The position numbers were made by a program, and so were the translations under genes. A stretch of 64,000 bases of DNA from Acinetobacter phage vB_AbaSI_3. The stretch lies in the sequence record PQ382034.1; one strand, 5' to 3'. Every line of letters starts with the position of its first letter. Position 1 is the stretch's first letter. Positions 1,924-43,977 of this stretch are shown piece by piece. The notes below the pieces were generated by a model. That model saw only the letters and a program-made list of their open reading frames with translations. It had not been told where the DNA came from and searched no databases.

Positions 1924-3420
1924 TTAGAAATTTAATTGTGCTGCAAGATCTTCAAGTTCAGATCGTGATGCTGCAGAAATTCGATGTACTTTTTCTAGTT
2001 CTTCACGATTAGACAATTTGATTGACTCTTCTGTGATAGGAATATTCTCCTTTGCATCAACACATGCTTTAATAATGATGTCATCAGTCATCATTTCGCC
2101 AGGAATAACTGGTGCACTTGGACCATCCGCTTCATACCAACGCTGATTACCTTTCTTAACACATAACGTGAATTTGTTATTGATTGACTTGTCGCCATAA
2201 CGAGATTTAATTTGTTTCATTAGCTGAACACCTTGTGCTGCAAGCTCTTCAGTTTCAATTGCAGCTAAAATGAAGTCAGCAGTATGGCTCAAGCCTGCAG
2301 ATTCTGCAATATCGCTCATGGTAATATCGGAGTTATCCCAACCGCCACGAGTTGTTTGAGCAGCAGTCCAAATTGGGACTCCTTCTTCAACCGCTAATGC
2401 ACGTAGTTCTTCAGCGATTGCTTTAACGAGTGTATATGAATTTTCGCTAAACACCTTAATTCGAGATGATGCACAAATACCCAAGTAATCGACAACAATA
2501 ACATCTGGCTTAAATCCTTTCTTGAGTTTGAGTTCATTCAATAACGCTTTAAATGTTAATGCATGCGCACCACCAATAGGATATTGTTTGATGTACAATT
2601 GTCCTAAAACATTTGCTCGTCTCCAACGTTCCATACGAGCTTTATATTCAGGGTAACTAACATGTCCATCATCTAAGTCATCCATTGAGATATCTAGCAA
2701 ATTTGCATCAATACGTTTTGCAACAACTTCTTCTGCCATCTCCATTGAGATATAAAGAACATTTTTACCAGATTGCAAATAGTCGGCAGTTAATGAACAT
2801 AGCCCTAAAGATTTACCAACATTGACACCTGCTAAAATGATGTTAAGTGTTCCAATTTCTACACCGCCTTTAGTGATTTTTCCAAGTATAGAAAGTTTGA
2901 ATGGAATCTTACGTGCTTTGTTCTGATATGATAACCAACGAGATTCATAGTCATCCATCCAGTTATGCCCAATAGATGAATCAAAGCATACTGCTAATGC
3001 CTCTTTCATGATATCTGGGATTGCACCTACATCAGGCAATCGTTTATCTCGTTGGTTTATGGGTTTATCAGCATTGTTCTGAATTTGAACAATTTTTACA
3101 GTGGCATTATATATCGCACGTTTTTTGATAAACGCTTCTGTTTCTGGTACTAACCAATCAATAGATTCCTTTTCAGTTTTAAGATTGTTTAATAAAGTAG
3201 TTGTGCCGTTGAAGTCTACTTCGTTTAAACTTGAATTGTTGACAACCAAGTCTAATGCTACTTTTGATGGAACTCCATGGTATGCATCTACATGCTTCTT
3301 AATAGAGTTATAGAGAATTCTTGCTGGTCCTTTGTCAAAATATTCCTCTTTGAGATATGGCCATACTTTGCCAAAATACTCTTGATTCGAGATCAATTGT
3401 CCTAAAATAATATCAATCAT
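1924..3420 (-). CDS. 41: replicative DNA helicase (DnaB family, T4 gp41-like) with an extra ~100-aa C-terminal tail
   Basis: Walker A GVNVGKSLG and overall DnaB-like organisation. It sits in the replication gene block, and at 498 aa is longer than T4 gp41 (475 aa). Confidence 0.75.
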   Translation of the reverse strand: MIDIILGQLISNQEYFGKVWPYLKEEYFDKGPARILYNSIKKHVDAYHGVPSKVALDLVVNNSSLNEVDFNGTTTLLNNLKTEKESIDWLVPETEAFIKKRAIYNATVKIVQIQNNADKPINQRDKRLPDVGAIPDIMKEALAVCFDSSIGHNWMDDYESRWLSYQNKARKIPFKLSILGKITKGGVEIGTLNIILAGVNVGKSLGLCSLTADYLQSGKNVLYISMEMAEEVVAKRIDANLLDISMDDLDDGHVSYPEYKARMERWRRANVLGQLYIKQYPIGGAHALTFKALLNELKLKKGFKPDVIVVDYLGICASSRIKVFSENSYTLVKAIAEELRALAVEEGVPIWTAAQTTRGGWDNSDITMSDIAESAGLSHTADFILAAIETEELAAQGVQLMKQIKSRYGDKSINNKFTLCVKKGNQRWYEADGPSAPVIPGEMMTDDIIIKACVDAKENIPITEESIKLSNREELEKVHRISAASRSELEDLAAQLNF

Positions 3421-3445
3421 GTGAACACCTTAATTAACTAAATCA

Positions 3446-3455
3446 ATTATATCAT
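3446..3455 (-). promoter_or_regulatory. early promoter, extended -10 (TGATATAAT)
   Basis: The reverse complement of caattatatca reads TGATATAATTG, 26 nt upstream of the helicase start at 3420. Confidence 0.4.
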
Positions 3456-3471
3456 CATCTCATAGAAGCAA

Positions 3472-3487
3472 TAGGCCCGAAGGCCTA
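3472..3487. terminator. GC hairpin taggcccgaaggccta (GNRA-like gaag loop), intergenic
   Basis: A perfect 6-bp GC stem with a 4-nt loop, directly downstream of ORF 3489..3791. This is the T4-style intergenic hairpin class. Confidence 0.4.
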
Positions 3488-3488
3488 T

Positions 3489-3791
3489 TTAAAAACTGAA
3501 CGGTTTCTTACGTTTAGAGAAGTTCACAATCATTTCTTTTAGAATATATTCGATATGTGGAATCAACTCTGCCTTACGATCTTCACTTGGAGTACTGAAG
3601 CCATATGTTACTCCATTGCCAGAAATTTGGAATTCTGTAATGTAAACAATATGATCTGTACCATCTTCAAGCTTAATTAGGAGTTCATGTTTTACATCTT
3701 TCATTGCATCCTTAATAATACTTAAAGACTTTTCATATAAAGCGCCTGATGGGCCTTTATCATCTTCTTGAATTGCTTCAACTTGTTCCAT
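3489..3791 (-). CDS. hypothetical protein (100 aa)
   Basis: ORF track entry; no recognisable motif. Confidence 0.45.
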   Translation of the reverse strand: MEQVEAIQEDDKGPSGALYEKSLSIIKDAMKDVKHELLIKLEDGTDHIVYITEFQISGNGVTYGFSTPSEDRKAELIPHIEYILKEMIVNFSKRKKPFSF

Positions 3792-3794
3792 ATG

Positions 3795-4913
3795 TTACTC
3801 CAATAATGCCTTTTCCCACATCGCGTACACACGAGATGGATTGTATTGTTCATATAATGCATTAGCACGTGCAACACGTTGTTCATATGTGTCTTCGAAC
3901 TCATTTAATGCTTTAGAATATGCGGCAATAATATCATTAGTTGACATACCTTCTTCAATCCAAACAACTTTAGTTAATGGATCATGTTCAAGTGTTGCAT
4001 GGCTATAACCACGTTTGATGAGTTGAAGTACAGGCACACCTTTCTCAATAGCTTCCAATGAACCGTGTTCAATAGTGCCTGTGTCATGACAAGTGTTAAC
4101 AAGGACTAGCGCTTCGGCTAATGTTGCCTGGATAGTTGCACGCGGAACATCAATATGTACAAAAGGCTCTTTGAGATATTTCTTAGGTGGTGCCCATTGA
4201 CTTGGCAGGAATGCAGCAATTTTATGATGAGATTTACTCATTGCTTCTAAAGCTACATTTGTCTTTCTGAATTTCAAATCATAGCGCTGTGCTGAAACTA
4301 CAACACCATTAGAAGGCAGCACTTTAGGGCGATTTTCGATTAATGTAGCCGGGAAGAAATTATCTGAGATGATGTCATGCTCTTGCCAATAATCAAAATC
4401 AATTGCACCTTTAGCAACTTTGATATTCATTTTTGAATACACTTGTGCTGTAAGGTCTTTAAATGTTTGAGTTGGCACAAGATTCTTGCCGCCATTTTGG
4501 TGAATAAAAACAGCAGTACGCCAAATTGAAACAAGTGTTCGAATACTAGGATCGAGTGGCGTTGCTAAAAGGTTTCGAATTTTAGGTCCTAACCCGAGTT
4601 TGATCAAGCCATTGATAACACCTTTTGCACCTTCAACAGTAACAACTACATCATATTTTGAATGGTCCAATTGTGAAATTTTGTCAATGATTTTGTTACC
4701 GTGTTTGATAGTGTACTTGTCTACAATTGGGTAGTCAATAGATATTGCATTGACTTTATATGGGCCAAAGTTTTCATCACCGAACGCCATGTAATCGATT
4801 TCATGGTGCTTACTCATTGTTTTGATGAAATTCAATTGAACTGATTCTAAGCCACCAGAAATATAATCAGCATTAAAAGTAATAAATCGACATGGAATGT
4901 ATAAAATTTTCAT
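3795..4913 (-). CDS. GT-B fold glycosyltransferase (candidate hydroxymethyl-pyrimidine DNA glycosyltransferase), paralog 1
   Basis: The C-terminal GSLEAIEKGVPVLQ...E motif resembles the GT4 EX7E region. The N-terminus (MKILYIPCR...GGLESVQ) recalls T4 alpha-gt (ARGLEG). It is a paralog of the next gene and is adjacent to gene 42. Confidence 0.55.
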   Translation of the reverse strand: MKILYIPCRFITFNADYISGGLESVQLNFIKTMSKHHEIDYMAFGDENFGPYKVNAISIDYPIVDKYTIKHGNKIIDKISQLDHSKYDVVVTVEGAKGVINGLIKLGLGPKIRNLLATPLDPSIRTLVSIWRTAVFIHQNGGKNLVPTQTFKDLTAQVYSKMNIKVAKGAIDFDYWQEHDIISDNFFPATLIENRPKVLPSNGVVVSAQRYDLKFRKTNVALEAMSKSHHKIAAFLPSQWAPPKKYLKEPFVHIDVPRATIQATLAEALVLVNTCHDTGTIEHGSLEAIEKGVPVLQLIKRGYSHATLEHDPLTKVVWIEEGMSTNDIIAAYSKALNEFEDTYEQRVARANALYEQYNPSRVYAMWEKALLE

Positions 4914-4946
4914 GTTTCATCTCAAAGAAAGTGTAGTAGTATTTAT

Positions 4947-4962
4947 GGAGCCCGAAGGCTCC
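4947..4962. terminator. GC hairpin ggagcccgaaggctcc
   Basis: A perfect stem with a gaag loop lies between the two GT paralogs. Confidence 0.4.
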
Positions 4963-4972
4963 AGTTTCAAAG

Positions 4973-6094
4973 TTATTTTAAAACATTTTCCCAGAGTTTG
5001 AAATATGCTTCTTCGTTAAATTTGTTGTAAAGATATTCAGCCCGAGCAACACGTTGTTCATATGTATCTTCAAACTCATTTAATGCTTTAGCATACATCT
5101 CGATTAATTCTTGAGTACTTGTGCCTTCTTCAAATTCAACTCGAACAGTATTAGGGTCGTACTCAAATGTAGCATGGTTGTATCCTTTTTGAATGAGTTG
5201 AAGTACTGGCGTACCTTGAGAAATAGCTTCAAGCGATCCATTTTCTACTGTACCAGTGTTGTGGCACGTATTGACAAGAAGTTTGGCAGTTGAAATTTCT
5301 TTTTGTATGGTTTGGCGTTTGGCATCGATAATGACCCAGTGATCTTTCTCCAGCCATTTTTTGCCAGGTGCCCATTTCGATGGACAGAATGCGATCTTAG
5401 GCCCATCAAATAAATCCATTGCACCGAATGCAACATTAGATTTTCTGAATGCATTGTCAAACCGTTGGGCTTGTACAATATGCCCTTCAGAATGAAGGAC
5501 TTCAGGTTTATTTGCAATCAAAATCGGCGGATAAAATTCATCTGCAATAATATCATGCTTTTGCCAATAATCAAAATCAATGACTTCTGCAGCAATACGT
5601 TCATTCATTTTAGAATAAACCTTTGCAGCTAAATCTTTAAATGTTTGAGTAGGAACGATATTCTTTCCGCCAAGTTTATGGACCATTACTGCATTGTTCC
5701 AGCATTGTACGATACCACGAACTGATGGGTCAAGTGGAGTAGCAAGAATATTACGAACCTTTGAAATTTGTCCGAGCTCTGCTAATGTATTAAGAACCAT
5801 TTTACTGCCTTCAATGATCACAATAGCATCGTACTGGTCCCAGTCTGTGATTTCTTGAAGTTTGTACTTGATTTTATATGCATGTGCGGTAGTGAACTTT
5901 GCGCCAATAGGTTTATCAATTGATAATTCGTTAACTTTAACACTGCCGAAGTTTTCGTCGCCAAATGAAACGTAATCGATATCATGCACTTTTGACAAGT
6001 TGACAATAAAATTATACTGAACCGCTTCAAGACCGCCAGCAACACGATCAATATCAAATGGCACTGAACGGCAAGGTAAGTATAAAATTTTCAT
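4973..6094 (-). CDS. GT-B fold glycosyltransferase, paralog 2 (probable start MKILYLPCR)
   Basis: It aligns along its full length with the 3795..4913 product (shared ...NEFEDTYEQRVARA C-terminus). The second ATG at 6094 forms an ATGA overlap with the upstream gene's stop. Confidence 0.55.
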   Translation of the reverse strand: MKILYLPCRSVPFDIDRVAGGLEAVQYNFIVNLSKVHDIDYVSFGDENFGSVKVNELSIDKPIGAKFTTAHAYKIKYKLQEITDWDQYDAIVIIEGSKMVLNTLAELGQISKVRNILATPLDPSVRGIVQCWNNAVMVHKLGGKNIVPTQTFKDLAAKVYSKMNERIAAEVIDFDYWQKHDIIADEFYPPILIANKPEVLHSEGHIVQAQRFDNAFRKSNVAFGAMDLFDGPKIAFCPSKWAPGKKWLEKDHWVIIDAKRQTIQKEISTAKLLVNTCHNTGTVENGSLEAISQGTPVLQLIQKGYNHATFEYDPNTVRVEFEEGTSTQELIEMYAKALNEFEDTYEQRVARAEYLYNKFNEEAYFKLWENVLK

Positions 6095-6095
6095 A

Positions 6096-6638
6096 TTATG
6101 CTCCAATAAAATTTTCAAGGGTTAAATCATAAACAACATCAGTAAATGATTTAGCTTCATTAATATTGTTGTGTACATCATGATCGAGGATTTTATATGG
6201 AGTTATATTAAATTCATCATATACTTCATTAAACCGATCCACAATTGCATTGAATTGATCTTCACTTACTGTAATTAAATCATCAGTAAAGCTATCTACA
6301 AGTTTGTTTCGTGTTAGCCCAATAACCAAGACTTCATTGTTTTGAATGAAACGTCTGAAATCTTCTTTGAAGATTTCAACTGGCTTTCCACGAAGAACAC
6401 TTTCATATACAATGTTACTTAAACCGCCTCGATCCAAAACATAGGTTTTACTGTTATCGACATAATTTAACATTGTTTCAAAAATTGCGACTTCATTTCG
6501 AGTTAGACAAGTGAAACGTCCTTCACTTGTCCTTTTCGGAAATTCCATCAAGGTTACATCAAAATGACGAGTAAGATTGCTAATCAAAGTTGTCTTACCA
6601 GCATTATCAGGCCCTTCTACAAGAATTATTTTTGCCAT
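6096..6638 (-). CDS. P-loop kinase (thymidylate/shikimate-kinase-like fold), substrate unknown
   Basis: N-terminal Walker A ILVEGPDNAGKTTL at the extreme N-terminus, as in small (d)NMP or sugar kinases. It is distinct from the gp1 dNMP kinase at 45.6 kb. Confidence 0.5.
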   Translation of the reverse strand: MAKIILVEGPDNAGKTTLISNLTRHFDVTLMEFPKRTSEGRFTCLTRNEVAIFETMLNYVDNSKTYVLDRGGLSNIVYESVLRGKPVEIFKEDFRRFIQNNEVLVIGLTRNKLVDSFTDDLITVSEDQFNAIVDRFNEVYDEFNITPYKILDHDVHNNINEAKSFTDVVYDLTLENFIGA

Positions 6639-7570
6639 ACATCTTCACCAGGTTGAATAACTACTTCATCATATGAAGGCATTATATACTCACTAATGAT
6701 GTTAGCATCAAAATAAATCAATTCACCTAACCCGGGATGAAACACATTTTGTGGATTTTCGTTGTAGATAATTGTCGGACGCTGAGACAACGTAATGTAA
6801 TACGCGATCTTTGACATTTTAACATCCATGATGGTTACATCTGGATATAGCTCGGCAATCTGATCTTTAAAATCGACATATGTGTCATTTGGATCTGTGA
6901 TAATGAGCATATTACCAGTTTCTGCACAATCTTTTACAACATCCATGAATCTATAACATTTGTCAGAGAGTCTGAATGGAAAGAATACAATATTAGAACC
7001 CATGTGCTGAGTGTCATCGATATTTTTAATATATCGTGCAATGACATCAGGATTGACTACCTTTTGAGTCATCACAATTTTATCTGCATCGATTCCATGA
7101 GCAATAAATTCTGCTCGTTGAGATTCATTCAATACAAATACTTTAATAGATTGCCGTGCAGTTTCAAGATCAGATTCCCACCATTTATCAATGTATGGAC
7201 GATCTAATCCAGGAACTTTGGAAATATTTGCATTGAAAATAAATTCATGAACTCCATTATAACCAGTGACATCAGTTATTAATACGTCGATGTTGTTTAT
7301 TCGCATAATTTCATCAACATTAGATTCATTCCAATACCAGAACCATTGGCGAGTTTCTTCAGCATTAGTACCATAATGAAATTGTACAAAGTTGAAATCT
7401 GGAAATAAGAATTCTAATTCAGATTTGTCTGAAATGTTGAATGGTACAGCAATCAAATCACCTTTCTGTGCACGATGTAGATGCAACTGAAAGTTGCCGT
7501 CTTTGAGGACGGCATACTTTCTAGTTTCATATGATCGCATCGAAAAAATTGGTACAATCATTCTAGCCAT
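6626..7570 (-). CDS. hypothetical protein (314 aa) within the modification module
   Basis: No motif recognised. Its position between the kinase and the dCMP hydroxymethylase suggests a role in DNA modification (a third transferase is possible). Confidence 0.45.
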   Translation of the reverse strand: MARMIVPIFSMRSYETRKYAVLKDGNFQLHLHRAQKGDLIAVPFNISDKSELEFLFPDFNFVQFHYGTNAEETRQWFWYWNESNVDEIMRINNIDVLITDVTGYNGVHEFIFNANISKVPGLDRPYIDKWWESDLETARQSIKVFVLNESQRAEFIAHGIDADKIVMTQKVVNPDVIARYIKNIDDTQHMGSNIVFFPFRLSDKCYRFMDVVKDCAETGNMLIITDPNDTYVDFKDQIAELYPDVTIMDVKMSKIAYYITLSQRPTIIYNENPQNVFHPGLGELIYFDANIISEYIMPSYDEVVIQPGEDVWQK

Positions 7571-7575
7571 ATCAT

Positions 7576-8283
7576 TTATCCTAAAAAGTTCTTAACGTAA
7601 TCCAAATCACGTTCAAATACATGTGCAGATACAATTGAGTGTGCATAAGTGCCAAGTCCTACACCACATTCTTTAGCAACATGTTCCATGAATCGATGCA
7701 TAAGATAAAAATCTAATTGCATTACCACTGCACAGTTTTGACTACGCATATGAGTATGCATGTACAAACGTCCTTCACGAATATAAAAGGTAATAGAATC
7801 TGTACATGGATATTCTAAAGTTTCATCTGAATCTAAAAGAACTTGGTCTTGCTCCTGAAGAATTTGGAAAACTACTCGTCGTGAGTTTGGTTTTTCTTTA
7901 AGTTCTTTAATAAGAGCTGGCATTTGGGCGGCGATTCGTGGCCCGTAGAAGGTGTTGAAATTCGAAGGAAGAGTATCCGTCTTCGGCTTTGCAATGAACT
8001 TCGCGACATTTGGATACTCCTTAAACGCTTGTTCCGCATCTGTGCCACCTTGAATCATGAATTCCCAGAATTTTTCTGCATAACCATAATCAATACGATT
8101 GATACGTTTGTCTTTAAATGTTGCACCAACATCTGGAAGTGCTACCTCTAAAAGAATTGATCCGATTTCACGACATTTGCCGATACGAGAATCCGTGACA
8201 AATTCAGGTTCAGTAATCACTAGATAATTGAGGCGTTTGAATGCTTCTTCAAATGTGCTAGCTAAAATATACTTTGTCATCAA
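7576..8283 (-). CDS. 42: deoxycytidylate (pyrimidine) hydroxymethylase, thymidylate-synthase fold (T4 gp42-like)
   Basis: Conserved blocks match T4 gp42: NSRR (T4 NPDSRRGIM), PCTDSITFYIR (MCTNTVQYLIR) and MRSQNCAVVMQLDFY (MRSNDVVFGFRNDYAW), with a histidine near the C-terminus. Confidence 0.7.
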   Translation of the reverse strand: MMTKYILASTFEEAFKRLNYLVITEPEFVTDSRIGKCREIGSILLEVALPDVGATFKDKRINRIDYGYAEKFWEFMIQGGTDAEQAFKEYPNVAKFIAKPKTDTLPSNFNTFYGPRIAAQMPALIKELKEKPNSRRVVFQILQEQDQVLLDSDETLEYPCTDSITFYIREGRLYMHTHMRSQNCAVVMQLDFYLMHRFMEHVAKECGVGLGTYAHSIVSAHVFERDLDYVKNFLG

Positions 8284-8675
8284 TTCACCTCTGGGACATA
8301 TGGTTGTTTAGATAATAATTCATTGTTACGAAAAGCATCTTTGAATTCTTTAGGGTTCAACGCCTTATCATCAATGATCCAGTCATAAACCGGCTTATGA
8401 GTTATTAAGTGGTGATATTTCAATCCGATTTTCTTGAGATTTTTTATTAAAGGTGGCAAGATAATCGAATCAATTAATTCTGGGCCTACTGACTTCATGC
8501 CTCTGGCTGTGAACAGCGTGATTGTATGCCCTTGATCATATAACGAATTAATAGTATCAACCATCTGTTGGTCTGGAACGAAATTCTCATAATCTCGATT
8601 ATCATTCCAGACAGTAATGGTGTTATCGATATCTATGCAAAAATGTTTTGCACCAGTCATTAAAGTTTCTCCCAA
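8280..8675 (-). CDS. HAD-superfamily phosphatase (small, KdsC-like size)
   Basis: The DxDxT motif CIDIDNTIT is present near the N-terminus of a 131-aa protein. Confidence 0.55.
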   Translation of the reverse strand: MGETLMTGAKHFCIDIDNTITVWNDNRDYENFVPDQQMVDTINSLYDQGHTITLFTARGMKSVGPELIDSIILPPLIKNLKKIGLKYHHLITHKPVYDWIIDDKALNPKEFKDAFRNNELLSKQPYVPEVN

Positions 8676-10321
8676 TGCATACCATCAATGAATTTATTTG
8701 GACGATATTTTTCACCGGTTTCTAAATCAATTAAGAGCCATTTATCAGGATTTTTGGTTGTCAATGTAGCGCTGACTAATCCTGTGTCATACGCTACTGA
8801 ACCATCCTGAAGACGTCGTCCCATGTGACTAAGTGTTTTCGATAACAAATACATGCCATAGTAGTATGCACTTACAGCTTTAAGTGGATTGTTTTTGAAA
8901 TATCCCGCAAGCGCGATCCAAATAACAGCAACCCATAAATGATGATACTCATTAAATGGTTCTGCATCAACATTTGTCAAGCCTAATGGCTCAATATTCA
9001 CAATAGCTGAATCGCCATCAATCGATAATCCACCCCACATAGGATCCGCATTAAATTTATCATAACCAGTTAATGCATAAAATACTTTAGCTTCATCATA
9101 AATTCGTGGACCATAAATTTTTGTTTTGCCAAAGTATCCACGTGGATCAATCAAACGAACTTTGCCTTTATCATCTAACATCAAGTTACTAAAGTTCGGG
9201 TCGCCATGAATAATATAGTAATCTTTGTCAGAGGCTTCATACATTAAATGGGCGTATGCTTGTTCAAGCATAGTTTCTAAACGTCCAATTTTATGATGAT
9301 TCACATATTGAATATTGCCAAATGATTGTATTAGTCCTTTAATTTCATTACAACGAGCTAAAACTTTATCGACGACTTCATAACGATAGTCTTCAGCGAT
9401 TTGTTCACGCGATGTGAATTCATTCATTTTAGGGAACTTAAGTGTTTCAAGAATTTCTGTGAGCATTTCTGGTTTATATGCCTCAAACATTGGAACACCT
9501 TTAATTCGTTCCATTTTAAAAGACGTATATTCACCAAAATCACGTCGATCAATGATTTTTGGCACCGCATCACTTTCTACACTATCGTACCATGCAAGTT
9601 CTTCACGTTGAAGTTCTCGCCCCTTTTCATTCAATGCAGTTTTATACACAACATCATTTGCTATTGTAATTGAATTAAATTCTCGATTTAATTCACGGTG
9701 ACGATGTGCGTGTTGGAGTTTTGGTTTATCACCAAGATCAATAAGATTAATCAATTCTTCTTGATACATATTTTTTGCATCAAGCAATTCTACAAAATCA
9801 CGTCCTTTGAAGAATTCGTTCGCTTCATCTTTATCATCAAAGTTACTAATAAAGAAATCTTTAAATTGATAGATGCCGACAACATTACCACCTGTACCAC
9901 CAGTTTCAGTTAATGTTTTGCCATCAAAATTATATCGGCATTCATCACCAAATGTATAAACCGAATTGCTATTCCATGAGAATGCATCAAATTGTGGAAT
10001 GACATCACACCAATTGAATACTACATTATGCAGATTGATCAAATGAGAAATTCGAGAAATTGCATAAGCCGAGCCATAAGCTTCATCAACAGTTTCAACA
10101 ATTATGTCTAACTTGAAAACCTTTGCATACTCACGTACTTGTTCTGCAAATTTGCTATGTACAACCACAATAATTTCATCTGCACCTAATTTTTTGTAGA
10201 TGCCATGCAAATGATGTAGAATTGTATGCTGTTTGTAGTTCACCAAAACTTTAGGAATATGATGTGTGATAGGATACAAACGAGTAGCTAAGCCTGCACC
10301 TAAAATAACCGCTTTTTTCAT
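8660..10321 (-). CDS. bifunctional sugar-1-phosphate nucleotidyltransferase (N-terminal) / sugar kinase (C-terminal, APH/ChoK-like)
   Basis: The N-terminus MKKAVILGAGLATRLYPITHHIPKVL is the G-x-G-x-R-L NTP-transferase signature. The C-terminus HGDPNFSNLMLDDKGKVRLIDPRG is the HGD..N...D kinase catalytic loop of the APH/choline-kinase fold. Confidence 0.65.
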   Translation of the reverse strand: MKKAVILGAGLATRLYPITHHIPKVLVNYKQHTILHHLHGIYKKLGADEIIVVVHSKFAEQVREYAKVFKLDIIVETVDEAYGSAYAISRISHLINLHNVVFNWCDVIPQFDAFSWNSNSVYTFGDECRYNFDGKTLTETGGTGGNVVGIYQFKDFFISNFDDKDEANEFFKGRDFVELLDAKNMYQEELINLIDLGDKPKLQHAHRHRELNREFNSITIANDVVYKTALNEKGRELQREELAWYDSVESDAVPKIIDRRDFGEYTSFKMERIKGVPMFEAYKPEMLTEILETLKFPKMNEFTSREQIAEDYRYEVVDKVLARCNEIKGLIQSFGNIQYVNHHKIGRLETMLEQAYAHLMYEASDKDYYIIHGDPNFSNLMLDDKGKVRLIDPRGYFGKTKIYGPRIYDEAKVFYALTGYDKFNADPMWGGLSIDGDSAIVNIEPLGLTNVDAEPFNEYHHLWVAVIWIALAGYFKNNPLKAVSAYYYGMYLLSKTLSHMGRRLQDGSVAYDTGLVSATLTTKNPDKWLLIDLETGEKYRPNKFIDGMHWEKL

Positions 10322-10337
10322 AATTAAAAATCCTAAA

Positions 10338-10371
10338 AGAGTTGTGATACAACTTATAATATCACAACTCT
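10338..10371. terminator. 11-bp perfect inverted repeat hairpin (agagttgtgat...atcacaactct)
   Basis: Intergenic, between the SIS gene and the NTase/kinase gene. Confidence 0.35.
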
Positions 10372-10388
10372 CAATTAAAGTACAATGC

Positions 10389-11018
10389 TTATTTAGATTC
10401 TGCTCTGAGCATAGCTCCTAATGAGCCACCAGGATGGTAAGAATAAAAGTCTTCGCGGGTGAATTGTAAATAATCTGAAAGTGTTACGCCGATAGTGTCA
10501 AGTAGTGTTAATAGAACCGTGGTGCTGGTAGTTGGTGCCAATTGATTGACATCACACTCTACAATATTCGGTACACCGAATTCCATATCAAATGGTGCTT
10601 TTTGCTCTTCAGTTAATTGGCTATTGCAGTGCAACAAGATTTGAAGAACATTAGGACGAATAGTCTTCAAATGACGTGCCATATATTGCATTTCTTCTGT
10701 TTTACCAGAACGCGAAACATGGATAACTACGTCATCATGTCCGATAAATCCTGCATCGCCATGAGAATAATGACATGTATTTAAGTACATAGACGGGATG
10801 CCAAGGCTCGCAAATGATTCTGATGCTTTAGTGGCCAAGTTTGAGTTTTTGCCGACGCCAGTAATCATAATACGTTGTCGATAATTTGATGCTGCCACAG
10901 GCTTCAAAATTTCAAGTAACTTTTCATATTTCACTTGATTTTCTGCAATAAAATCGCCTAGTATTTTAAGCGCCTGTTGTTGAGCCGCTACTACATCTAA
11001 TGCTAATTTGATACTCAT
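10389..11018 (-). CDS. SIS-domain phosphosugar isomerase (KdsD/GutQ-like arabinose-5-phosphate isomerase)
   Basis: RIMITGVGKNSNLATKASESFASLGIPSMYLN...HGDAGFIGHDDVVIHVSRSGKTEEM closely parallels the KdsD SIS core (VVTGMGKSGHIGKK...GTP..F.HP.EAAHGDLG...DVVIAISNSGES.E). Confidence 0.65.
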   Translation of the reverse strand: MSIKLALDVVAAQQQALKILGDFIAENQVKYEKLLEILKPVAASNYRQRIMITGVGKNSNLATKASESFASLGIPSMYLNTCHYSHGDAGFIGHDDVVIHVSRSGKTEEMQYMARHLKTIRPNVLQILLHCNSQLTEEQKAPFDMEFGVPNIVECDVNQLAPTTSTTVLLTLLDTIGVTLSDYLQFTREDFYSYHPGGSLGAMLRAESK

Positions 11019-11044
11019 AATGTTTACCTCTAAATTATGGAACT

Positions 11045-11053
11045 ATTATATCA
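11045..11053 (-). promoter_or_regulatory. early promoter, extended -10 (TGATATAAT)
   Basis: The reverse complement of attatatca lies 27 nt upstream of the SIS gene start. Confidence 0.4.
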
Positions 11054-11377
11054 TCAATCTTTCAAAATTGATCTGCTTATAGAAAAGTGAATTTTGGCAG
11101 GTTCATAATGGCGCCCTTGTTCAAATTCTCTAGTGAAACGAATTGAGAGTTGTGTTTTATTCATTCGAACAAAATTTGTATCGATGTACTCAAACAACTC
11201 TTTTATTGCACTTGCACTTTTTTCGCCGTTGAAGTATACATGAGTCCACATCTCATTATCAGGCGAGCTGATAATTCGATCTTTAAGAATGTGCTCAGCT
11301 TCAGTTACAATAGCTTCAGCTTCTGCATGGTTGATGAAACGTGGAGTCTCGCTCAATAATTTTTTAAAGTTAATCAT
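11054..11377 (-). CDS. hypothetical protein (107 aa)
   Basis: ORF track entry. Confidence 0.45.
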   Translation of the reverse strand: MINFKKLLSETPRFINHAEAEAIVTEAEHILKDRIISSPDNEMWTHVYFNGEKSASAIKELFEYIDTNFVRMNKTQLSIRFTREFEQGRHYEPAKIHFSISRSILKD

Positions 11378-11829
11378 TAGTACAAGTTCTCCGAATAAAG
11401 AGTTCCGCCTTTAGATGTGTCACCACCTACACGACAAACAATTTGCTGTTGCTCTGCCGCAATTTTCCAAGCTTCTTGGCGATCAACAAATCGATGTTTA
11501 TTTGTTAAGAAGCCTTGTACTTCTGTTTCACGGTATAGGATTGTTTCACCGCTATTGTGTCCAACAAATGACGAATACATCACATCACATGCGTGGCGAA
11601 CACCTGCAATTACAACTTTGTTTCCATTGTGATCTGTGTACTGGTTTGCAGCACAAACAATACGTTCAGGTACAATATGTGTTCGGCCTTCAGGTAATTT
11701 GTTAATATCATATTTAGGCAAATCAGTCAATTCTTCACATTTCTGTTGCCATGCCATGTTTGCATGTGCCAAATGATTAACTTCAAATTCATGTACCTGT
11801 TTTAATTTTGAAACTTCTGCTTCAGACAT
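11377..11829 (-). CDS. hypothetical protein (150 aa)
   Basis: ORF track entry; ATGA overlap with the downstream gene. Confidence 0.5.
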   Translation of the reverse strand: MSEAEVSKLKQVHEFEVNHLAHANMAWQQKCEELTDLPKYDINKLPEGRTHIVPERIVCAANQYTDHNGNKVVIAGVRHACDVMYSSFVGHNSGETILYRETEVQGFLTNKHRFVDRQEAWKIAAEQQQIVCRVGGDTSKGGTLYSENLY

Positions 11830-11830
11830 T

Positions 11831-12184
11831 TTATTTGACTCCCATGCATGTATCTAATAATGTACGATAGTGTTTTGAATTAAGATAGCCAAACCGGAAA
11901 ACAGTCTCATCGATTGCCATTTGGCGACAAATCTGAACTGCGATAACTTCTGGTGAAATTTGTGGTTTGTTTCGTAGTTGTTCCATTACAGGACGCTCAC
12001 GTTCTACTGCATCATCAATATGTGTCTGAAGCATCTTGCGATGATTTTGCATATCTTCTTCTAAATCAATTCGACGTTGTTGATCAGCTAAACATCGTTT
12101 GTCCCATCCTTTGCACATTTGTATATCTTCAGCAAAAGATAAACTTGGAATAGCTAATGCTAGTGCAATCAATACAAATTTCAT
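11831..12184 (-). CDS. secreted hypothetical protein (signal peptide MKFVLIALALAIPSLSFA)
   Basis: Classic signal peptide with an AxA cleavage site. Confidence 0.5.
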   Translation of the reverse strand: MKFVLIALALAIPSLSFAEDIQMCKGWDKRCLADQQRRIDLEEDMQNHRKMLQTHIDDAVERERPVMEQLRNKPQISPEVIAVQICRQMAIDETVFRFGYLNSKHYRTLLDTCMGVK

Positions 12185-12477
12185 TACATTGCTCCTAATA
12201 AGCTTGCTATAATTGCAAGGTCACCGACACCTGCTATAGCAACAATTAGTAATAAGACTAATGCAAATGCGATAGATTTTAAAGTATTCATCACACCGAT
12301 CGATATTGCAGCTATGATAAATGCAATGAATGTTGTTACGCCCATTGTAACGAAGCCAAGTAAGTTTAGAATAACTACAAGGACTGTAATCGCAGTAGAA
12401 CTCTTATAGAATACTACCATTGCAATAGGAAATATTGACAAAAATAACGCTACGATACTTCCAACTAAGAGACTCAT
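12184..12477 (-). CDS. small integral membrane protein (Imm-like position near gene 43)
   Basis: Almost entirely hydrophobic, with 2-3 predicted TM helices. In T4 the imm gene lies between 42 and 43. Confidence 0.4.
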   Translation of the reverse strand: MSLLVGSIVALFLSIFPIAMVVFYKSSTAITVLVVILNLLGFVTMGVTTFIAFIIAAISIGVMNTLKSIAFALVLLLIVAIAGVGDLAIIASLLGAM

Positions 12478-12785
12478 GAGGCGTCTCCTTTAAGTAAAAT
12501 TAACTCGGTTGTAGTATAGTTAAGTTGATCAATAGCGATACAAGTATCTTCCCATTGTTTAACAACATCCTGAACTTCAGCAATGACTTCGTAGTCAGTT
12601 CCTGGATAGTTGTCCCAATCTTCTGCACGTCGGATCGGTTCATCACTAAATGCGGTAATAGTTCCATCTTTGTCGACTGCTACATGAGCAGCCCATTCTG
12701 GTAAGTATACTGTTACAGGACCAGTTTTTTCAGAACCTGAGATTAGTGTAACATTTAACGCATGTGGATAGTAAGTAATTTTCAT
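12474..12785 (-). CDS. hypothetical protein (103 aa)
   Basis: ORF track entry. Confidence 0.45.
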   Translation of the reverse strand: MKITYYPHALNVTLISGSEKTGPVTVYLPEWAAHVAVDKDGTITAFSDEPIRRAEDWDNYPGTDYEVIAEVQDVVKQWEDTCIAIDQLNYTTTELILLKGDAS

Positions 12786-12836
12786 GACGATTTCCTCATT
12801 AGGAATAATTATTTGATAGAGCTATTATAATACCAC

Positions 12837-12870
12837 AAAAGGCAAAAGTAAATAAAAACTTTTGCCTTTT
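12837..12870. terminator. hairpin aaaaggcaaaag...cttttgcctttt
   Basis: An 11-bp stem flanked by A/T runs on both strands, in an intergenic position. Confidence 0.35.
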
Positions 12871-12875
12871 GATAA

Positions 12876-13175
12876 TTAACCGAAACGCCTTGTAAGATGT
12901 TCAACCATATTGTCTGCAATAGATGCAGCTGATGAAGAAACTCCATCGCATCCACGAAGGACACCGCTATTTGGCAGATATGCCAATGCACAAGCCTTCC
13001 AGAATTCACGCTTCTCTAATTCTGTGATTGCGGGAATAGGTGTACTAAAAAGCTGGTATTCGCGAGCTTCATCTACCGATACAGTAGTTTTACATTTAGT
13101 ACAACGAACTTTAGGTGGACTACTTAGCAATACTGCGTCGAAATTAAATTCATGATTGCATAATAAACTGTTCAT
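12876..13175 (-). CDS. hypothetical protein (99 aa; CxxC...CxxC pairs)
   Basis: ORF track entry; cysteine pairs (CNHE...RCTKCKT) suggest a zinc ribbon. Confidence 0.45.
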   Translation of the reverse strand: MNSLLCNHEFNFDAVLLSSPPKVRCTKCKTTVSVDEAREYQLFSTPIPAITELEKREFWKACALAYLPNSGVLRGCDGVSSSAASIADNMVEHLTRRFG

Positions 13176-13208: not shown

Positions 13209-14381
13209 TTAAAAGTCAAATAAATCTTCTAATGAAGAACGTTTTTCTGCTTGCATACCTGCAGATTCACACATACCTTCCAAAGGTTTCTTATATGTTT
13301 TTGTAAACAATGACATAACGTCAACATGTTTTAAAACATCTTCACGAATTTCTTTAGGAAGTTCGTTGCCTGATGGCCATGCAATAACTTTGTCGCCAAA
13401 TGGATTTCCAGGTTTCAAAGGCAAGATCATAACTTTATCACCTTCACTAATATCCGGTAAGTTATCGAATGCCTTAATTGCACGTCGATACGTCAAAACA
13501 CCACGAATATGACTAGGACATTTCAATCCAGGGAAGCCATTATCATCATATTTTGCAATGTTATTTGCAGTTCTTACACCTGCAATAACTTTGTAATCAA
13601 GATTTCTAAATTCATTTTCAAATTTCTTGAAATAGTCTTGAAGTGGCTTTTCACCTTCTTGAAGCATGATTCGAATACTTTCTAATAATGCATCTTTAAC
13701 CGCTTTAGGTGTAGATGATTGTTGAGTTTCCATGCCCATGATTTTCAAGTATGGCTCTTTAAAACGAGTACCTTCCATGTCATACACATTTAATGCATAA
13801 CGTTTCTTAGCTCGCCAGAATCCGCCGATGCCGTTAGAACCAAGTGGTGGGCATGCAATAGCTTCACGATCCATGAACATTAATTGCTCATAGTTGTTAA
13901 GATATTCGCACAGTTCTTGGAAGCCTGCATTAATAACCGGTTCGATTTTCTTTGAACCTACTGCATCCAAGAAGTCAACTAATTTTTCAGTTGATGCAAA
14001 TTTTTCAATGCCAACTTTATCAATGAGTGGACTCAATTCAATATACAATGAATCTGTATCACCATAAATTACATACGGATGATTAGTTGTTCCACACATT
14101 TCATTAAGGTATGCATTAATTTTTCGTTCTGTCCATTGAAGGACCAATTGTCCGAAAATAGTAATCGCTTCTGCATTACGAAGATCGTAAAATCTAAAGT
14201 AGATATTGCCGAGTGCCCCATATAATGAGTTAATGAGCAACTTCCGATTAATTTGATTCGTATCACACAAAACAATATAATTTTCACATTCATGCTCAAG
14301 TTCAAGCAATTCTTCTTGTGAAAGTGTTTTGAGATATTCGATTTCGGATTCAGTTAAGTCACGACTAAAATCTAATTTCAT
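13209..14381 (-). CDS. 43B: DNA polymerase, C-terminal (palm/thumb) segment, gp43B
   Basis: It aligns with T4 gp43 residues ~520-898 (LINSLYGALGNIYFRFYDLRNAEAITIFGQ, YGDTDS, KKRYALNVYDMEG, IMGMETQQSSTPKA, GNPFGDKVIAWPSG). Confidence 0.9.
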   Translation of the reverse strand: MKLDFSRDLTESEIEYLKTLSQEELLELEHECENYIVLCDTNQINRKLLINSLYGALGNIYFRFYDLRNAEAITIFGQLVLQWTERKINAYLNEMCGTTNHPYVIYGDTDSLYIELSPLIDKVGIEKFASTEKLVDFLDAVGSKKIEPVINAGFQELCEYLNNYEQLMFMDREAIACPPLGSNGIGGFWRAKKRYALNVYDMEGTRFKEPYLKIMGMETQQSSTPKAVKDALLESIRIMLQEGEKPLQDYFKKFENEFRNLDYKVIAGVRTANNIAKYDDNGFPGLKCPSHIRGVLTYRRAIKAFDNLPDISEGDKVMILPLKPGNPFGDKVIAWPSGNELPKEIREDVLKHVDVMSLFTKTYKKPLEGMCESAGMQAEKRSSLEDLFDF

Positions 14382-16387: not shown

Positions 16388-17896
16388 TTATTTCATTAAT
16401 TTTTTAATCACTTCGGCATTACGTTTTGCAGCCATCATTTTCTTCTTCCATTCTTTACGTTGGAAGAACACTTTAGTAATTTCTTGTGGAATGATACCTT
16501 GCTTTGTCTTCGAATACATCATACCACTTGGCGAGCATGAGAATTCATTTGAAGGGCTCGGCGCAATCTTATTAATGAAATCGCTAAGTTTAGGCGGCGC
16601 AAATTGTCCTGCAATTGTTTCTGGGCTAATGTTTACTTGGCGAATGATTGACGGATACAGAGATGTTACGTCAAACGACAAAACATATTTGTACGCACCA
16701 GGCACAGGGTTTTTAACATATGCGCCTTCATACGGTTGTCGAACATTTGGCTTAGCTTCCGGTAAAACTAAGTGCTCGGCTTTTAATGAGTTGAAGATAA
16801 TTGCATCCCAAGTTTTCACAGGACTCATTACTGTTGCAATATTCATTCGAGCGTAATAGCCCATTGAAATTGACAGGTTGATAAATCCACGTTTTGCGTC
16901 AATTGCTTGTACACAGTACACATCGACAATGTTATATGAAATATAACGCTGGTGGTTTGATTCACGTAATTTGTCGATTGGACCGTCATATTCTAATTTG
17001 TTGATGCCGGCTTCATATTCTGCAATATAATCGAGTTTATATGATGGCTGTGAAGTAAACGCAAACTTTTTATATAAATCCATGTAATCGAGAATCATGA
17101 TTCCAGAAATATTGAAAATTTCTTTATCTCCATACATGTTTTGAATGACTTTTGACGTTACTTTACCAAAAGGACTTAAACGTTTCATGTTCGAGACACC
17201 AAGAACGTTTTTGATACGATTTACAATATATGGAATATCAAATCCTTCAACGTTCCAACCGGTGAAGATGACAGGAGTTTTTTCTTCCCATAAACGAATG
17301 TATTCTAACAGCATTTCCTTTTCTGTTTCGAATGGCATATACACAACTTTATCTAAAATATGTTGTGGAACTTCATCGCCGCCTTCATCAATTGATTTGC
17401 CTGCAAGAACCGGATCCCACTTTGAAACACGTCCACGTTGAGAGTTCAACAAGTCAAACACGTAGTATTTGTCATCAATAGAATCATAGTGTGTAATTGC
17501 ATCAATTTCATATTTTGCAAAGGTCGGATTCGGGAACTCTCCTGCTGTTACCTCGATGTCACAGTTTGCAACACGAATTGCATTTCTGCTATATGTGATG
17601 TCCTTTTTTCCATACACATCAGAAATATATGCAAGTTTGAAGTCATCCATACCTAAAATTTCTACAATTCCACGTGTCTTTTGCATCCAGTCTTTAGCTT
17701 CACGAATGGAGCTAAAACGTTTAGGAATACATGGCTTGCCATAAATGTCTTTATATTTTGATTCAACGCCTTCTTTGGCATGAATGAACAGTGTAGGCTC
17801 ATATGGAATTTCACGAACTTTTTCGACGCCATTTTCCACATAACGCTCTTGAATAAGGTCGCCAGATTGTTCAACTACTAGATAGAAATTATCCAC
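16388..17896 (-). CDS. 43A: DNA polymerase, N-terminal and 3'-5' exonuclease segment, gp43A
   Basis: Near-identical blocks to T4 gp43 residues 1-505 (DFKLAYISD, RVANCDIEVT, YEIDAITHYDSIDD, FTGWN.EGFD.PYI.NR, HQRYISYNI.DV, VMSPIKTWDAIIFNSLK, DVTSLYPSIIRQVNISPETI, GIIP.EI.KVFFQRK.WKKKM). It ends where T4 continues with KGAGSCS... Confidence 0.9.
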   Translation of the reverse strand: MDNFYLVVEQSGDLIQERYVENGVEKVREIPYEPTLFIHAKEGVESKYKDIYGKPCIPKRFSSIREAKDWMQKTRGIVEILGMDDFKLAYISDVYGKKDITYSRNAIRVANCDIEVTAGEFPNPTFAKYEIDAITHYDSIDDKYYVFDLLNSQRGRVSKWDPVLAGKSIDEGGDEVPQHILDKVVYMPFETEKEMLLEYIRLWEEKTPVIFTGWNVEGFDIPYIVNRIKNVLGVSNMKRLSPFGKVTSKVIQNMYGDKEIFNISGIMILDYMDLYKKFAFTSQPSYKLDYIAEYEAGINKLEYDGPIDKLRESNHQRYISYNIVDVYCVQAIDAKRGFINLSISMGYYARMNIATVMSPVKTWDAIIFNSLKAEHLVLPEAKPNVRQPYEGAYVKNPVPGAYKYVLSFDVTSLYPSIIRQVNISPETIAGQFAPPKLSDFINKIAPSPSNEFSCSPSGMMYSKTKQGIIPQEITKVFFQRKEWKKKMMAAKRNAEVIKKLMK

Positions 17897-41099: not shown

Positions 41100-41340
41100 G
41101 ATGGTAAGTTCATCAGGTCTTACAAGCCCTTAAAGGAACTTAATCTGGCAGGCACTGAACGAATCGAACGCTCGTTAATGGGGTTGGAGCCCACTGTAAT
41201 AACCACTATACGAAATGCCTGTGGCGGAAAGCAGTGTAATCGAAACACAACCGAATTAACAGTCCACTCGCTTAGCAGGCGGTGCCAATCACCCTATTGG
41301 ATTACTTTCCTTAGAATAAACATAATGATGTGACAAGCCA
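41100..41340 (-). ncRNA. candidate structured non-coding RNA region (GC-enriched, multiple local hairpins) adjacent to the tRNA array
   Basis: The region contains hairpin cctgatggtaagttcatcagg and other local stems, has higher GC than its surroundings, and has no convincing ORF (the + ORF 41082..41333 has no SD and odd composition). T4 carries stable RNAs C/D near its tRNA genes. Confidence 0.3.
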
Positions 41341-41688
41341 TTGATTTTGGCGTTGTATATTATTGGTGAGGCGGCGAGAACGTTCTTCATCTTCTTTGCG
41401 ACGTTTTTCTCGCTCAGCCTCTTGTCTTGCAATTCTTTTACGTGTCTCTTCCTCAATTGATCGTTCACTATGGCCACTATATCGTGGAAATCCAGTGCTA
41501 TACGAAGGTGAATCAAACCCCGTTCCATTACGCATTGTCATTTCATTCATGCGTCTTGAGAAATCAACATATTGAGAAACGCTCATATTTCCTCCAAGGA
41601 ATATGGTGGAGTGTGATGGAATTGCACCATCCTAATCCTGCTCTTCAGGCAAGCGCTAATCTATCTCAGCTAACACTCCAAAAGTAAA

Positions 41689-41765
41689 TGGTCTCCGTAA
41701 AATGATTTGAACATTTGACCCTATCGTCCCAAACGATATGCTCTACCAGACTGAGCTATACGGAG
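41689..41765 (-). tRNA. tRNA-Pro (anticodon TGG), CCA encoded
   Basis: Hand-folded: acceptor CTCCGTA/TACGGAG, D arm GCTCAGTCTGGTAGAGC, anticodon loop TTTGGGA, T arm AAATGTTCAAATCATTT, ACCA 3' end. Confidence 0.75.
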
Positions 41766-41766
41766 A

Positions 41767-41861
41767 TGGCGGAAGGTGAGGGGAACGATCCCTCAAGGCG
41801 TGTCACCACGCTCGACTGATTTCAAGTCAGCTGCCGTCGCCAGCCATCGGCTTGACCTTCC
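41767..41861 (-). tRNA. candidate type-II tRNA-Ser (anticodon TGA) with an atypical T-loop
   Basis: Acceptor GGAAGGT/ACCTTCC + G + CCA, anticodon arm GCTGA-CTTGAAA-TCAGT, long variable arm GCGTG-GTGA-CACGC. The T-loop ATCGTTC is non-canonical. Confidence 0.45.
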
Positions 41862-42086
41862 AATATTTTTCAATTCTCACTTAAGGCGGAGGAACACCTA
41901 AATTGTCTTGTGTAGAATGTCCTTTTATACTTTCGAGCATTCTACCACTCAATAAGTAAATCTTGAAGTTTAGTACATTTAACGAGTTGATACTTCAACA
42001 AGCTCATAAACAAGACAATAAAAACATGACGACCTAGGAATTTACGCCATTAGGACACCTAGGTCCATTTACGTCATTTTTGAATT

Positions 42087-42163
42087 TGGCTCCCCGCGGT
42101 GGGTTCGAACCACCGACCTCCAGATTAACAGTCTGTCGCTACTACCAACTGAGCTAGCGGGGA
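42087..42163 (-). tRNA. tRNA-Asn (anticodon GTT), CCA encoded
   Basis: Acceptor TCCCCGC/GCGGGGA + G + CCA, anticodon loop CTGTTAA, T arm GGTGGTTCGAACCCACC. Confidence 0.7.
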
Positions 42164-42170
42164 ATAATGT

Positions 42171-42250
42171 TGGAATCACCCGGAGGAATCGAACCTCTCA
42201 CTTCCTTCCCACTTTTTAAGTATCTGCTTAGAAGGCAGATGTGGGGGCGA
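42171..42250 (-). tRNA. tRNA-like element: Arg-type anticodon hairpin (TCT) plus canonical T arm, but no recognisable D arm (possible pseudo-tRNA)
   Basis: TCTGC-CTTCTAA-GCAGA hairpin and GAGGTTCGATTCCTC T arm with a CGGGTGA 3' acceptor strand. The 5' half does not form a cloverleaf by eye. Confidence 0.3.
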
Positions 42251-42269
42251 GCGACATAAATTCTTAAAG

Positions 42270-42340
42270 TTCTGGCACGAGGAATCGAACCTCGGTGACT
42301 GGAGTACAAAACCAGCATAATACCATTATATGACGCCAGA
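42270..42340 (-). tRNA. tRNA-Thr (anticodon TGT), CCA not encoded; acceptor stem extended by a 10-bp leader/trailer duplex
   Basis: Acceptor TCTGGCG/TGCCAGA, anticodon loop TTTGTAC, T arm CGAGGTTCGATTCCTCG. The flanking gttcttaaagt / actttaagaa extend the acceptor stem to 17 bp. Confidence 0.65.
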
Positions 42341-42656
42341 ACTTTAAGAACTTTTGATAATATTATTTATACAACCATAAAGGCACCGTCATGACCACTC
42401 ATCAAGAACACAGTGAGTTAAAACTTTTTGTGATGAGATTAATAAGGCCTAATCGAAAACATTTGAACTTTGCTAAATAAAAACTTTGATCTTTAAGATT
42501 TTAGCTTTGAACTTTAGCATTGGGATAATGTACAGGATTCGCGCTTGGGAAACCTATATCATCATCAAAGTTCTATAACCTTAGAAGTTAGCCGGATTTA
42601 GGAATACCGGCTCGAACCCTCTACAGTTTTTGATCATGACGATTAAAATTTACCTA

Positions 42657-43223: not shown

Positions 43224-43299
43224 TCAAATTTCCTCTAATCAAAATAATCTTTAATTTATGTAGTTAATTATATAACATAAATCATTAAAAGCCTTTGCT

Positions 43300-43976: not shown

Positions 43977-43977
43977 A

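Follow-up and report, generated by a model that had tools for sequence, protein, structure and literature searches.

A probable arabinosyl-5-hydroxycytosine DNA hypermodification cluster in Acinetobacter phage vB_AbaSI_3

The stretch of DNA analysed here, called the window, comprises 64,000 nucleotides of Acinetobacter phage vB_AbaSI_3 (record PQ382034.1). With high probability, its region 3795-11018 is the cluster by which a Lazarusvirus hypermodifies its DNA to arabinosyl-5-hydroxycytosine, and it would encode the complete pathway proposed below, with beta-Araf-5-beta-Araf-3-alpha-Araf-O-5-dC (Araf, arabinofuranose; dC, deoxycytidine) as the final base. The eight genes that an earlier reading of the sequence alone had described here are real: all eight open reading frames (ORFs) are found in this region, co-directional on the minus strand. 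This sequence-only reading was also right in seeing here a module for the hypermodification of cytosine in DNA, which occupies the slot of beta-gt and gene 42 in T4, yet its expectation of an undescribed or poorly characterised system is superseded by three reports (Mahler et al., Cell Host Microbe 2025; He et al., Nat Chem Biol 2026; Lee et al., NAR 2026, PMC13326640). The system is already known, having been resolved by experiment in near-identical phages in 2025-2026, and the window adds no new biology to it. Its genes are as follows, the last one lying outside the cluster:

3795-4913, minus strand: ORF of 372 amino acids, predicted GT-B (GT4-like) DNA arabinosyltransferase, paralogue A, extending (beta); DLP3 gp76 by gene order
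4973-6094, minus strand (longest ORF 4973-6118, likely start ATG 6094): 373 amino acids, predicted GT-B DNA arabinosyltransferase, paralogue B; DLP3 gp77 by gene order
6096-6638, minus strand: ORF of 180 amino acids, thymidylate-kinase-like P-loop nucleotide kinase; DLP3 gp78 by gene order, homologue of RB69 gp45
6626-7570, minus strand: ORF of 314 amino acids, GT-B transferase; DLP3 gp79 by gene order, homologue of RB69 gp46:47
7576-8280, minus strand (longest ORF 7576-8283, likely start ATG 8280): 234 amino acids, thymidylate-synthase fold, predicted 5-hydroxy-dCMP synthase, flavin-dependent by homology; DLP3 gp80 by gene order, homologue of RB69 gp48
8280-8660, minus strand (longest ORF 8280-8675, likely start ATG 8660): 126 amino acids, small HAD phosphatase, AfhF-like; DLP3 gp81 by gene order, homologue of RB69 gp51
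8660-10321, minus strand: ORF of 553 amino acids, predicted bifunctional nucleotidyltransferase/APH-type kinase, AfhE-like; DLP3 gp82 by gene order, homologue of RB69 gp53+52
10389-11018, minus strand: ORF of 209 amino acids, predicted SIS arabinose-5-phosphate isomerase; DLP3 gp83 by gene order, homologue of RB69 gp55
45650-46384, minus strand: gp1-type deoxynucleoside monophosphate (dNMP) kinase, outside the cluster, inside the window and required by the pathway

The ATG codons at 6094, 8280 and 8660, slightly downstream of the longest-ORF starts, are probably the true starts, as judged from annotated relatives and the alignment of the two paralogues.

The product is best read from phage DLP3, which belongs to the same host genus and phage group. 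In DLP3 virion DNA, beta-D-Araf-(1-5)-beta-D-Araf-(1-3)-alpha-D-Araf-O-5-hydroxy-dC replaces dC completely; high nucleotide identity of DLP1 and DLP2 to DLP3 is stated in the same study, and lazarusviruses are named among the lineages with the cluster (Lee et al., 2026, PMC13326640). DLP3 gp76-gp83 correspond one-to-one in order and predicted functions to the eight genes of the window, and no substantive difference was detected in this comparison by order and functions with DLP2 (98% identical in DNA) as a proxy. The DLP1 homologue of the 372-amino-acid transferase is 99.2% identical to it. The isolate studied here very likely forms this product too, with its three arabinoses, and the poly-arabinosylation that the sequence-only reading had put forward as one option agrees with the three sugars shown in the sibling DLP3. 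The hydroxylase, the dNMP kinase, the addition of the third sugar and the DNA structure have been shown on orthologues (PMC13326640), as has the AfhE/AfhF chemistry (He et al., 2026, as relayed by Lee et al.).

By its closest sequence relatives, the phage is a Lazarusvirus, a T4-like phage of Acinetobacter baumannii. A megablast search with 3795-11018 matched 55 phage records, of which 38 are 95-99% identical and every one of these an Acinetobacter T4-like phage. The closest DNA matches, with 97-98.5% identity over the cluster, include MD-2021a (98.5%) and DLP2 (98.0%), together with AC4, Berthold, Lazarus and KARL-1; Berthold is classified in Straboviridae, Twarogvirinae, Lazarusvirus. The cluster proteins have 200-350 phage matches at the protein level. 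Chance ORFs are ruled out because the genes are conserved in this many records, both as DNA and as protein. The cluster combines a thymidylate-synthase (TS) fold enzyme with the D169N substitution, homology to validated synthases, a supply set for UDP-arabinofuranose (UDP-Araf), and one predicted initiating and two predicted extending transferases.

Base and sugar branches of the pathway

The 234-amino-acid TS-fold protein (Pfam Thymidylat_synt, E=4e-14) bears on the nature of the modified base. In an alignment to E. coli ThyA, Cys146 is retained and the substitutions L143E, D169N and N177D are present; the region around ThyA-169 reads RSQN in the window, RSCD in E. coli and RSND in T4 gp42, which retains Asp169. 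D169N has been defined as diagnostic of synthases of 5-hydroxy-deoxycytidine monophosphate (5-hydroxy-dCMP); nine of nine further D169N homologues tested gave 5-hydroxydeoxycytidine (5hodC), and RB69 gp48 and DLP3 gp80 themselves produce 5hodC, incorporate 18O2 and bind flavin (Lee et al., 2026, PMC13326640). The window enzyme is 70% identical to RB69 gp48 and 93% to the orthologue in phage Maestro, whereas it shares 21% identity with T4 gp42 (blastp E=6e-9). Among PDB entries it matches 9iqu, 9iqc and 9ir2 with E=1e-110, and the T4 dCMP hydroxymethylase 1b49 with only E=6e-4. The three former entries, like 9iqw, 9iqz and 9ir0, belong with the Afh genes of E. coli phage HY126 (He et al., 2026). 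Judged from these residues and matches, the TS-fold protein is a cytosine C5 hydroxylase of the 5-hydroxy-dCMP synthase clade and not a gp42-type hydroxymethylase. Asn169, the 70% identity to RB69 gp48 and the match to 9iqu together place the predicted sugar in ether linkage on 5-hydroxycytosine and not on 5-hydroxymethylcytosine (hmC). Consequently, neither the gp42-like pyrimidine hydroxymethylase nor the 5-hydroxymethyl-dC acceptor of the sequence-only reading can be kept, and the RB69-lineage arabinosyl-hmC to which it appealed goes back to a report that has since been revised.

The TS-fold enzyme would hydroxylate dCMP at C5 with flavin and O2 to 5-hydroxy-dCMP, which the gp1-type dNMP kinase would convert to the diphosphate and host kinases to the triphosphate. 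The phage polymerase would then insert the 5-hydroxy-dC nucleotide instead of dC, with gp56 dCTPase depleting dCTP. The gp1-type kinase is 97% identical to Berthold gp1 (tblastn) and matches PHROG_139, dNMP kinase, with E=3e-47; this role has been shown for the orthologues DLP3 gp169 and RB69 gp159 (Lee et al., 2026, PMC13326640). The gp56 gene, its position judged from Berthold, would lie about 8 kb past the left end of the window.

The activated sugar would be supplied by three proteins (isomerase, fusion protein and HAD enzyme), which are 52-64% identical to their RB69 orthologues. They carry the four activities that had been proposed to lead from ribulose 5-phosphate to a nucleoside diphosphate arabinose, and arabinose as the sugar fits both the DLP3 structure and the presence of an arabinose-5-phosphate isomerase. 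The 209-amino-acid protein matches TIGR00393 (KpsF/GutQ, E=4e-29) and KdsD (PRK10892, E=2e-25), both over the SIS half only, covering TIGR00393 profile positions 2-153 of 268 with 102 bits, where the curated cut-off is 203.7. With KdsD/GutQ isomerases it shares the SIS catalytic domain and the HPGG motif (residue 195, aligned to PDB 5uqi). It lacks the C-terminal tandem CBS pair of KdsD and represents the SIS-only form, as do PDB 5uqi and 3etn. Matches to 5uqi (E=1e-24), 2xhz (E=2e-12) and PHROG_5670 (E=2e-98) and 58% identity to RB69 gp55 complete the picture of the KdsD/GutQ-like isomerase that had been recognised before, and the enzyme would convert ribulose 5-phosphate to D-arabinose 5-phosphate (Ara5P).

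The small HAD phosphatase had likewise been identified correctly: the 126-amino-acid protein has a DIDNT motif, matches the capsule-biosynthesis phosphatase family TIGR01689 (E=5e-11) and PDB entries 9iqw (E=2e-47) and 1xpj (E=9e-8), and is 62% identical to RB69 gp51. The 553-amino-acid protein, 64% identical to RB69 gp53 and 52% to RB69 gp52, consists of two domains. Its N-terminal domain matches Pfam NTP_transferase (E=7e-9, residues 3-99) and has a GAGLATRL motif; the C-terminal domain carries an HGDPNFSN catalytic loop and an IDPR(G) motif, both invariant in the family, and 12 of 33 homologues match Pfam APH (E<=1e-3; best E=4e-9). These Pfam, motif and family-scan results speak for the proposed fusion of a nucleotidyltransferase with a putative APH/choline-kinase-type kinase. 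When the family profile was searched against the PDB, nucleotidyltransferases dominated the matches (best 5xhw, a heptose-pathway enzyme, E=4e-15) and the kinase domain was not reached. Distant fused nucleotidyltransferase-APH relatives are found in bacterial metagenome-assembled genomes.

In phage HY126, as relayed by Lee et al., AfhE phosphorylates Ara5P to arabinofuranose 1,5-bisphosphate (Araf-1,5-P2), the HAD enzyme AfhF then removes the 5-phosphate, and the nucleotidyltransferase domain of AfhE makes UDP-Araf after the AfhF step (He et al., 2026). This orthologue biochemistry reverses the order in which the sequence-only reading had put the phosphatase before the 1-kinase. By the same logic, the kinase domain of the 553-amino-acid protein would phosphorylate Ara5P at C1 to Araf-1,5-P2, the HAD phosphatase would take off the 5-phosphate to leave arabinose 1-phosphate, and the N-terminal domain would join the latter with UTP to UDP-D-Araf.

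Glycosyltransferases and the P-loop kinase

The fold of the transferases was assigned by structure prediction because Pfam, NCBIfam and PHROGs were uninformative: neither Pfam nor NCBIfam had a meaningful match to any of the three proteins (for the 314-amino-acid protein there was one below-threshold NCBIfam match), and PHROGs gave only unnamed families without assigned function. The prediction gives a GT-B fold for the 314- and 372-amino-acid proteins. The two full-length paralogous GT-B glycosyltransferases that had been described are confirmed; they are 57% identical to each other and both match PDB 9iqz in phmmer searches (paralogue A, E=5e-86, 292 bits; paralogue B, E=2e-94, 320 bits). 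They would add the second (beta-1,3) and the third (beta-1,5) Araf. In DLP3, the third Araf is added from UDP-Araf by gp76 acting jointly with gp77, and both are needed in vitro (Lee et al., 2026, PMC13326640); this requirement hints at a heteromeric complex or a division of labour. Paralogue B is the likelier beta-1,3 second-sugar transferase, because its sequence is slightly closer to the single RB69 gp3/HY126 enzyme (42.8% identity and 313 bits to RB69 gp3, against 40.8% and 286 bits for paralogue A). It is 92% identical to Maestro_078. The copies also differ in a motif, EHGSLEAIE in the 372-amino-acid copy and ENGSLEAIS in the 373-amino-acid copy, where the second Glu of E-x7-E is Ser; the HY126 enzyme has Ser as well.

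The third GT-B transferase is the 314-amino-acid protein, formerly left as an unknown. Structure prediction and orthology to RB69 gp46:47 (about 47.5% identity) now place it, although phmmer found no match for it in the PDB. Its gene adjoins the TS-fold gene, as befits an initiating transferase of the RB69 gp46:47/DLP3 gp79 type. We predict that it is the initiating alpha-arabinosyltransferase acting on 5-hydroxycytosine, which would attach the first alpha-Araf to the 5-OH group.

The cluster also contains the P-loop kinase noted in the sequence-only reading. The 180-amino-acid protein has the Walker A motif GPDNAGKT, matches Pfam AAA_28 (E=4e-6) and PHROG_761 'thymidylate kinase' (E=5e-31), and is 46% identical to RB69 gp45 and 71% to Maestro_079; a sequence search against the PDB gave no match. 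The gene, like RB69 gp45, is kept in every cluster examined, and the published pathway has no step requiring it. It is tempting to suppose both that this kinase is dedicated to the 5-hydroxy-dC nucleotide pool or to a sugar-nucleotide step and that the paralogues act as an obligate hetero-oligomer, adding the beta-1,3 and beta-1,5 Araf processively despite their GT4-like fold. GT4 enzymes are normally retaining. We hold this combined proposal only tentatively and think it rather more doubtful than probable.

Alternative products and points of doubt

The alternative that fares best retains the pathway type and changes its product: the phage could add one or two arabinoses, use another linkage, or use xylose as suggested for Shewanella phage Thanatos. 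The sugar count does vary (Thanatos has a single sugar, RB69 and NP have one or two, and DLP3 has three), the Thanatos group reports UDP-xylose pyrophosphorylase activity in a homologous cluster, and this exact genome is known from its genes alone. Yet all three transferases are intact in the window, including both third-sugar paralogues, the near-identity to DLP1 in the 372-amino-acid transferase and to DLP2 across the cluster speaks for the DLP3 product, and an arabinose-5-phosphate isomerase makes no sense for xylose. A different product is in our opinion improbable.

A gp42-like hydroxymethylase forming 5-hydroxymethyl-dC, which would be (poly)arabinosylated to arabinosyl-hmC by way of free arabinose, with the phosphatase acting before the anomeric kinase, has even less in its favour. 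It would account for the TS fold and for N177D and L143E, which are common to gp42; moreover, RB69 was first reported as an arabinosyl-hmC phage (Thomas et al., 2018), and Table 1 of Lee et al. (PMC13326640) labels the HAD enzyme 'dephosphorylates Araf5P to Ara'. However, Asn169 occurs in every tested 5hodCMP synthase while T4 gp42 keeps Asp, and the enzyme is close to RB69 gp48, a 5hodC maker with 18O2 incorporation, and remote from gp42. Mass spectrometry and nuclear magnetic resonance of DLP3 and RB69 DNA found the base fragment at m/z 128.05 instead of 142.06, together with an arabinose C1-O-C5 ether (PMC13326640). The earlier hmC assignment is now called erroneous, and AfhE phosphorylates Ara5P directly (He et al., 2026, as relayed by Lee et al.). 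This route to hmC seems to us very improbable. A role of the sugar genes as auxiliary metabolic genes for host capsule or lipopolysaccharide, implied by some GenBank labels and by homologue names such as kpsF, capsule biosynthesis phosphatase and LicC-like (CTP:phosphocholine cytidylyltransferase), has next to no probability, given that the genes lie in a replication/nucleotide-metabolism block interleaved with the TS-fold enzyme and the DNA transferases, co-vary with these across Straboviridae, and would supply UDP-Araf, the donor used on DNA in vitro (PMC13326640). An hmC pathway, a genuine gp42 orthologue and a capsule or lipopolysaccharide role were thus all rejected.

Several points nevertheless weigh against an arabinosyl-5-hydroxycytosine cluster with the complete pathway as we propose it. 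The product in this phage is predicted from its genes, and orthology to DLP3 was judged by gene order and predicted functions, with DLP2 standing in for it; the DLP3 genome was not among the phage-collection matches listed, while DLP1 and DLP2 were. The first-sugar step is a prediction, and it may take place either on the mononucleotide or on DNA. The kinase domain of the window's own 553-amino-acid protein reaches Pfam APH (PF01636) with E=0.006 and 16.8 bits, under the cut-off of 23.2. Finally, the bisphosphate route comes from He et al. (2026) as relayed by Lee et al., and Table 1 of Lee et al. (2026, PMC13326640) still gives the phosphatase-then-kinase order.

Related systems, genomic setting and meaning

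Beyond the lazarusviruses, the arrangement is found in a different genus in phage Maestro (Hadassahvirus), where CPT_Maestro_077-084 correspond to all eight genes in unchanged order with 71-93% protein identity, the 314-amino-acid transferase and the P-loop kinase being the most diverged (71%). Maestro, which is covered by Mahler et al. (2025), is listed among phages with arabinosylated 5hodC. RB69 (Mosigvirus) carries orthologues within gp45-gp55 with 46-70% identity, besides gp3 with 41-43%, and in either phage the locus is flanked by genes 41/40 and 43. RB69 has a single extending transferase that is distant from the locus, adjoining rIIA, and stops at two sugars, whereas in the window two paralogues stand in tandem within the cluster. 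RB69 gp49 and gp50 (peptidase-U32-like) have no counterpart in the window, and uvsX is not adjacent there. In T4, gene 42 together with alpha-gt/beta-gt provides hydroxymethylation, unlike the predicted hydroxylation in the window (D169N; 21% identity), where the sugar would be a pentofuranose, ether-linked to C5-O, with a donor nucleotide made by the phage. The window has no T4 beta-gt homologue (tblastn E>2), no homologue of either the beta- or the alpha-glucosyltransferase, and in its TS-fold enzyme not the Asp at ThyA-169 of the gp42-clade hydroxymethylases.

The sugar branch can also be compared with the ADP-heptose pathway, which consists of the SIS isomerase GmhA, the bifunctional kinase/adenylyltransferase HldE and the HAD phosphatase GmhB; AmgK/MurU and LicA/LicC are further kinase-nucleotidyltransferase pairs. 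The four-step logic is the same (a SIS isomerase turning a ketose phosphate into an aldose phosphate, an anomeric kinase giving a bisphosphate, a HAD phosphatase taking off the distal phosphate, and nucleotidylyl transfer), and HldE fuses kinase and transferase as does the 553-amino-acid protein. In contrast, the kinase has a PfkB fold in the heptose pathway and a predicted APH/choline-kinase fold in the window, where the transferase precedes the kinase and the substrate is a C5 sugar. The likeness would therefore be one of analogy, not of membership or kinase homology.

The cluster has genes 41/40 on one side and gene 43, for the split DNA polymerase, on the other, and so occupies the slot that holds beta-gt and gene 42 in T4 and gp45-55 in RB69. 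Packing is tight, with overlaps or gaps of <=13 nucleotides except two gaps of 59 and 67 nucleotides. These gaps (4914-4972 and 10322-10388) are the sole sizeable intergenic spaces of the cluster, and both contain strong hairpins: GGAGCC-TTCG-GGCTCC in one case, and in the other a stem of some 14 bp with TTTT after it, located between the SIS gene and the 553-amino-acid-type gene, where the Maestro record has an annotated terminator. The hairpins may mark the ends of transcripts in the module or places where its RNA is processed. A promoter and terminator consensus scan of 3300-11600 gave no excess of sites over shuffled sequence (40 where 36 were expected, and 4 where 3.9 were expected), and we draw no operon boundaries from it.

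Between the isomerase and the polymerase, at 11054-13175 on the minus strand, lie six small ORFs without assigned function, including a predicted membrane protein (12184-12477). They are kept in Maestro and Berthold, are without functional PHROG annotation, and no link of these ORFs to the modification pathway was found. The gp43 polymerase is split into a C-terminal ORF of 390 amino acids (13209-14381, minus strand) and a 502-amino-acid ORF (16388-17896, minus strand) in place of Berthold gp43A, separated by about 2 kb of small ORFs. In Berthold a MobE homing endonuclease adjoins the C-terminal part; an ORF of this kind is absent from that place in the window. Elsewhere in the window, nine tRNA genes are clustered at 41146-44297 on the minus strand, among them one of amber-suppressor type with a CUA anticodon (44223-44297; labelled tRNA-Pyl by ARAGORN).

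The practical value of the window lies in annotation, as the public labels of these genes can now be corrected. GenBank labels in the cluster are inconsistent and mostly wrong, ranging from 'DNA alpha-glucosyltransferase', 'thymidylate synthase / dCMP hydroxymethylase' and 'polynucleotide kinase' to 'phosphoheptose isomerase', 'UDP-glucose dehydrogenase', 'CTP:phosphocholine cytidylyltransferase', 'capsule biosynthesis' and 'hypothetical'. For the phage itself, the modification would block restriction enzymes and other nuclease defences. Arabinosylated 5-hydroxycytosine protects phage DNA from type II restriction enzymes, the Brig1 glycosylase and type I CRISPR-Cas, and at the same time exposes it to enzymes such as BrxU. 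Such shielding and exposure are relevant when therapeutic phages are picked against carbapenem-resistant A. baumannii.

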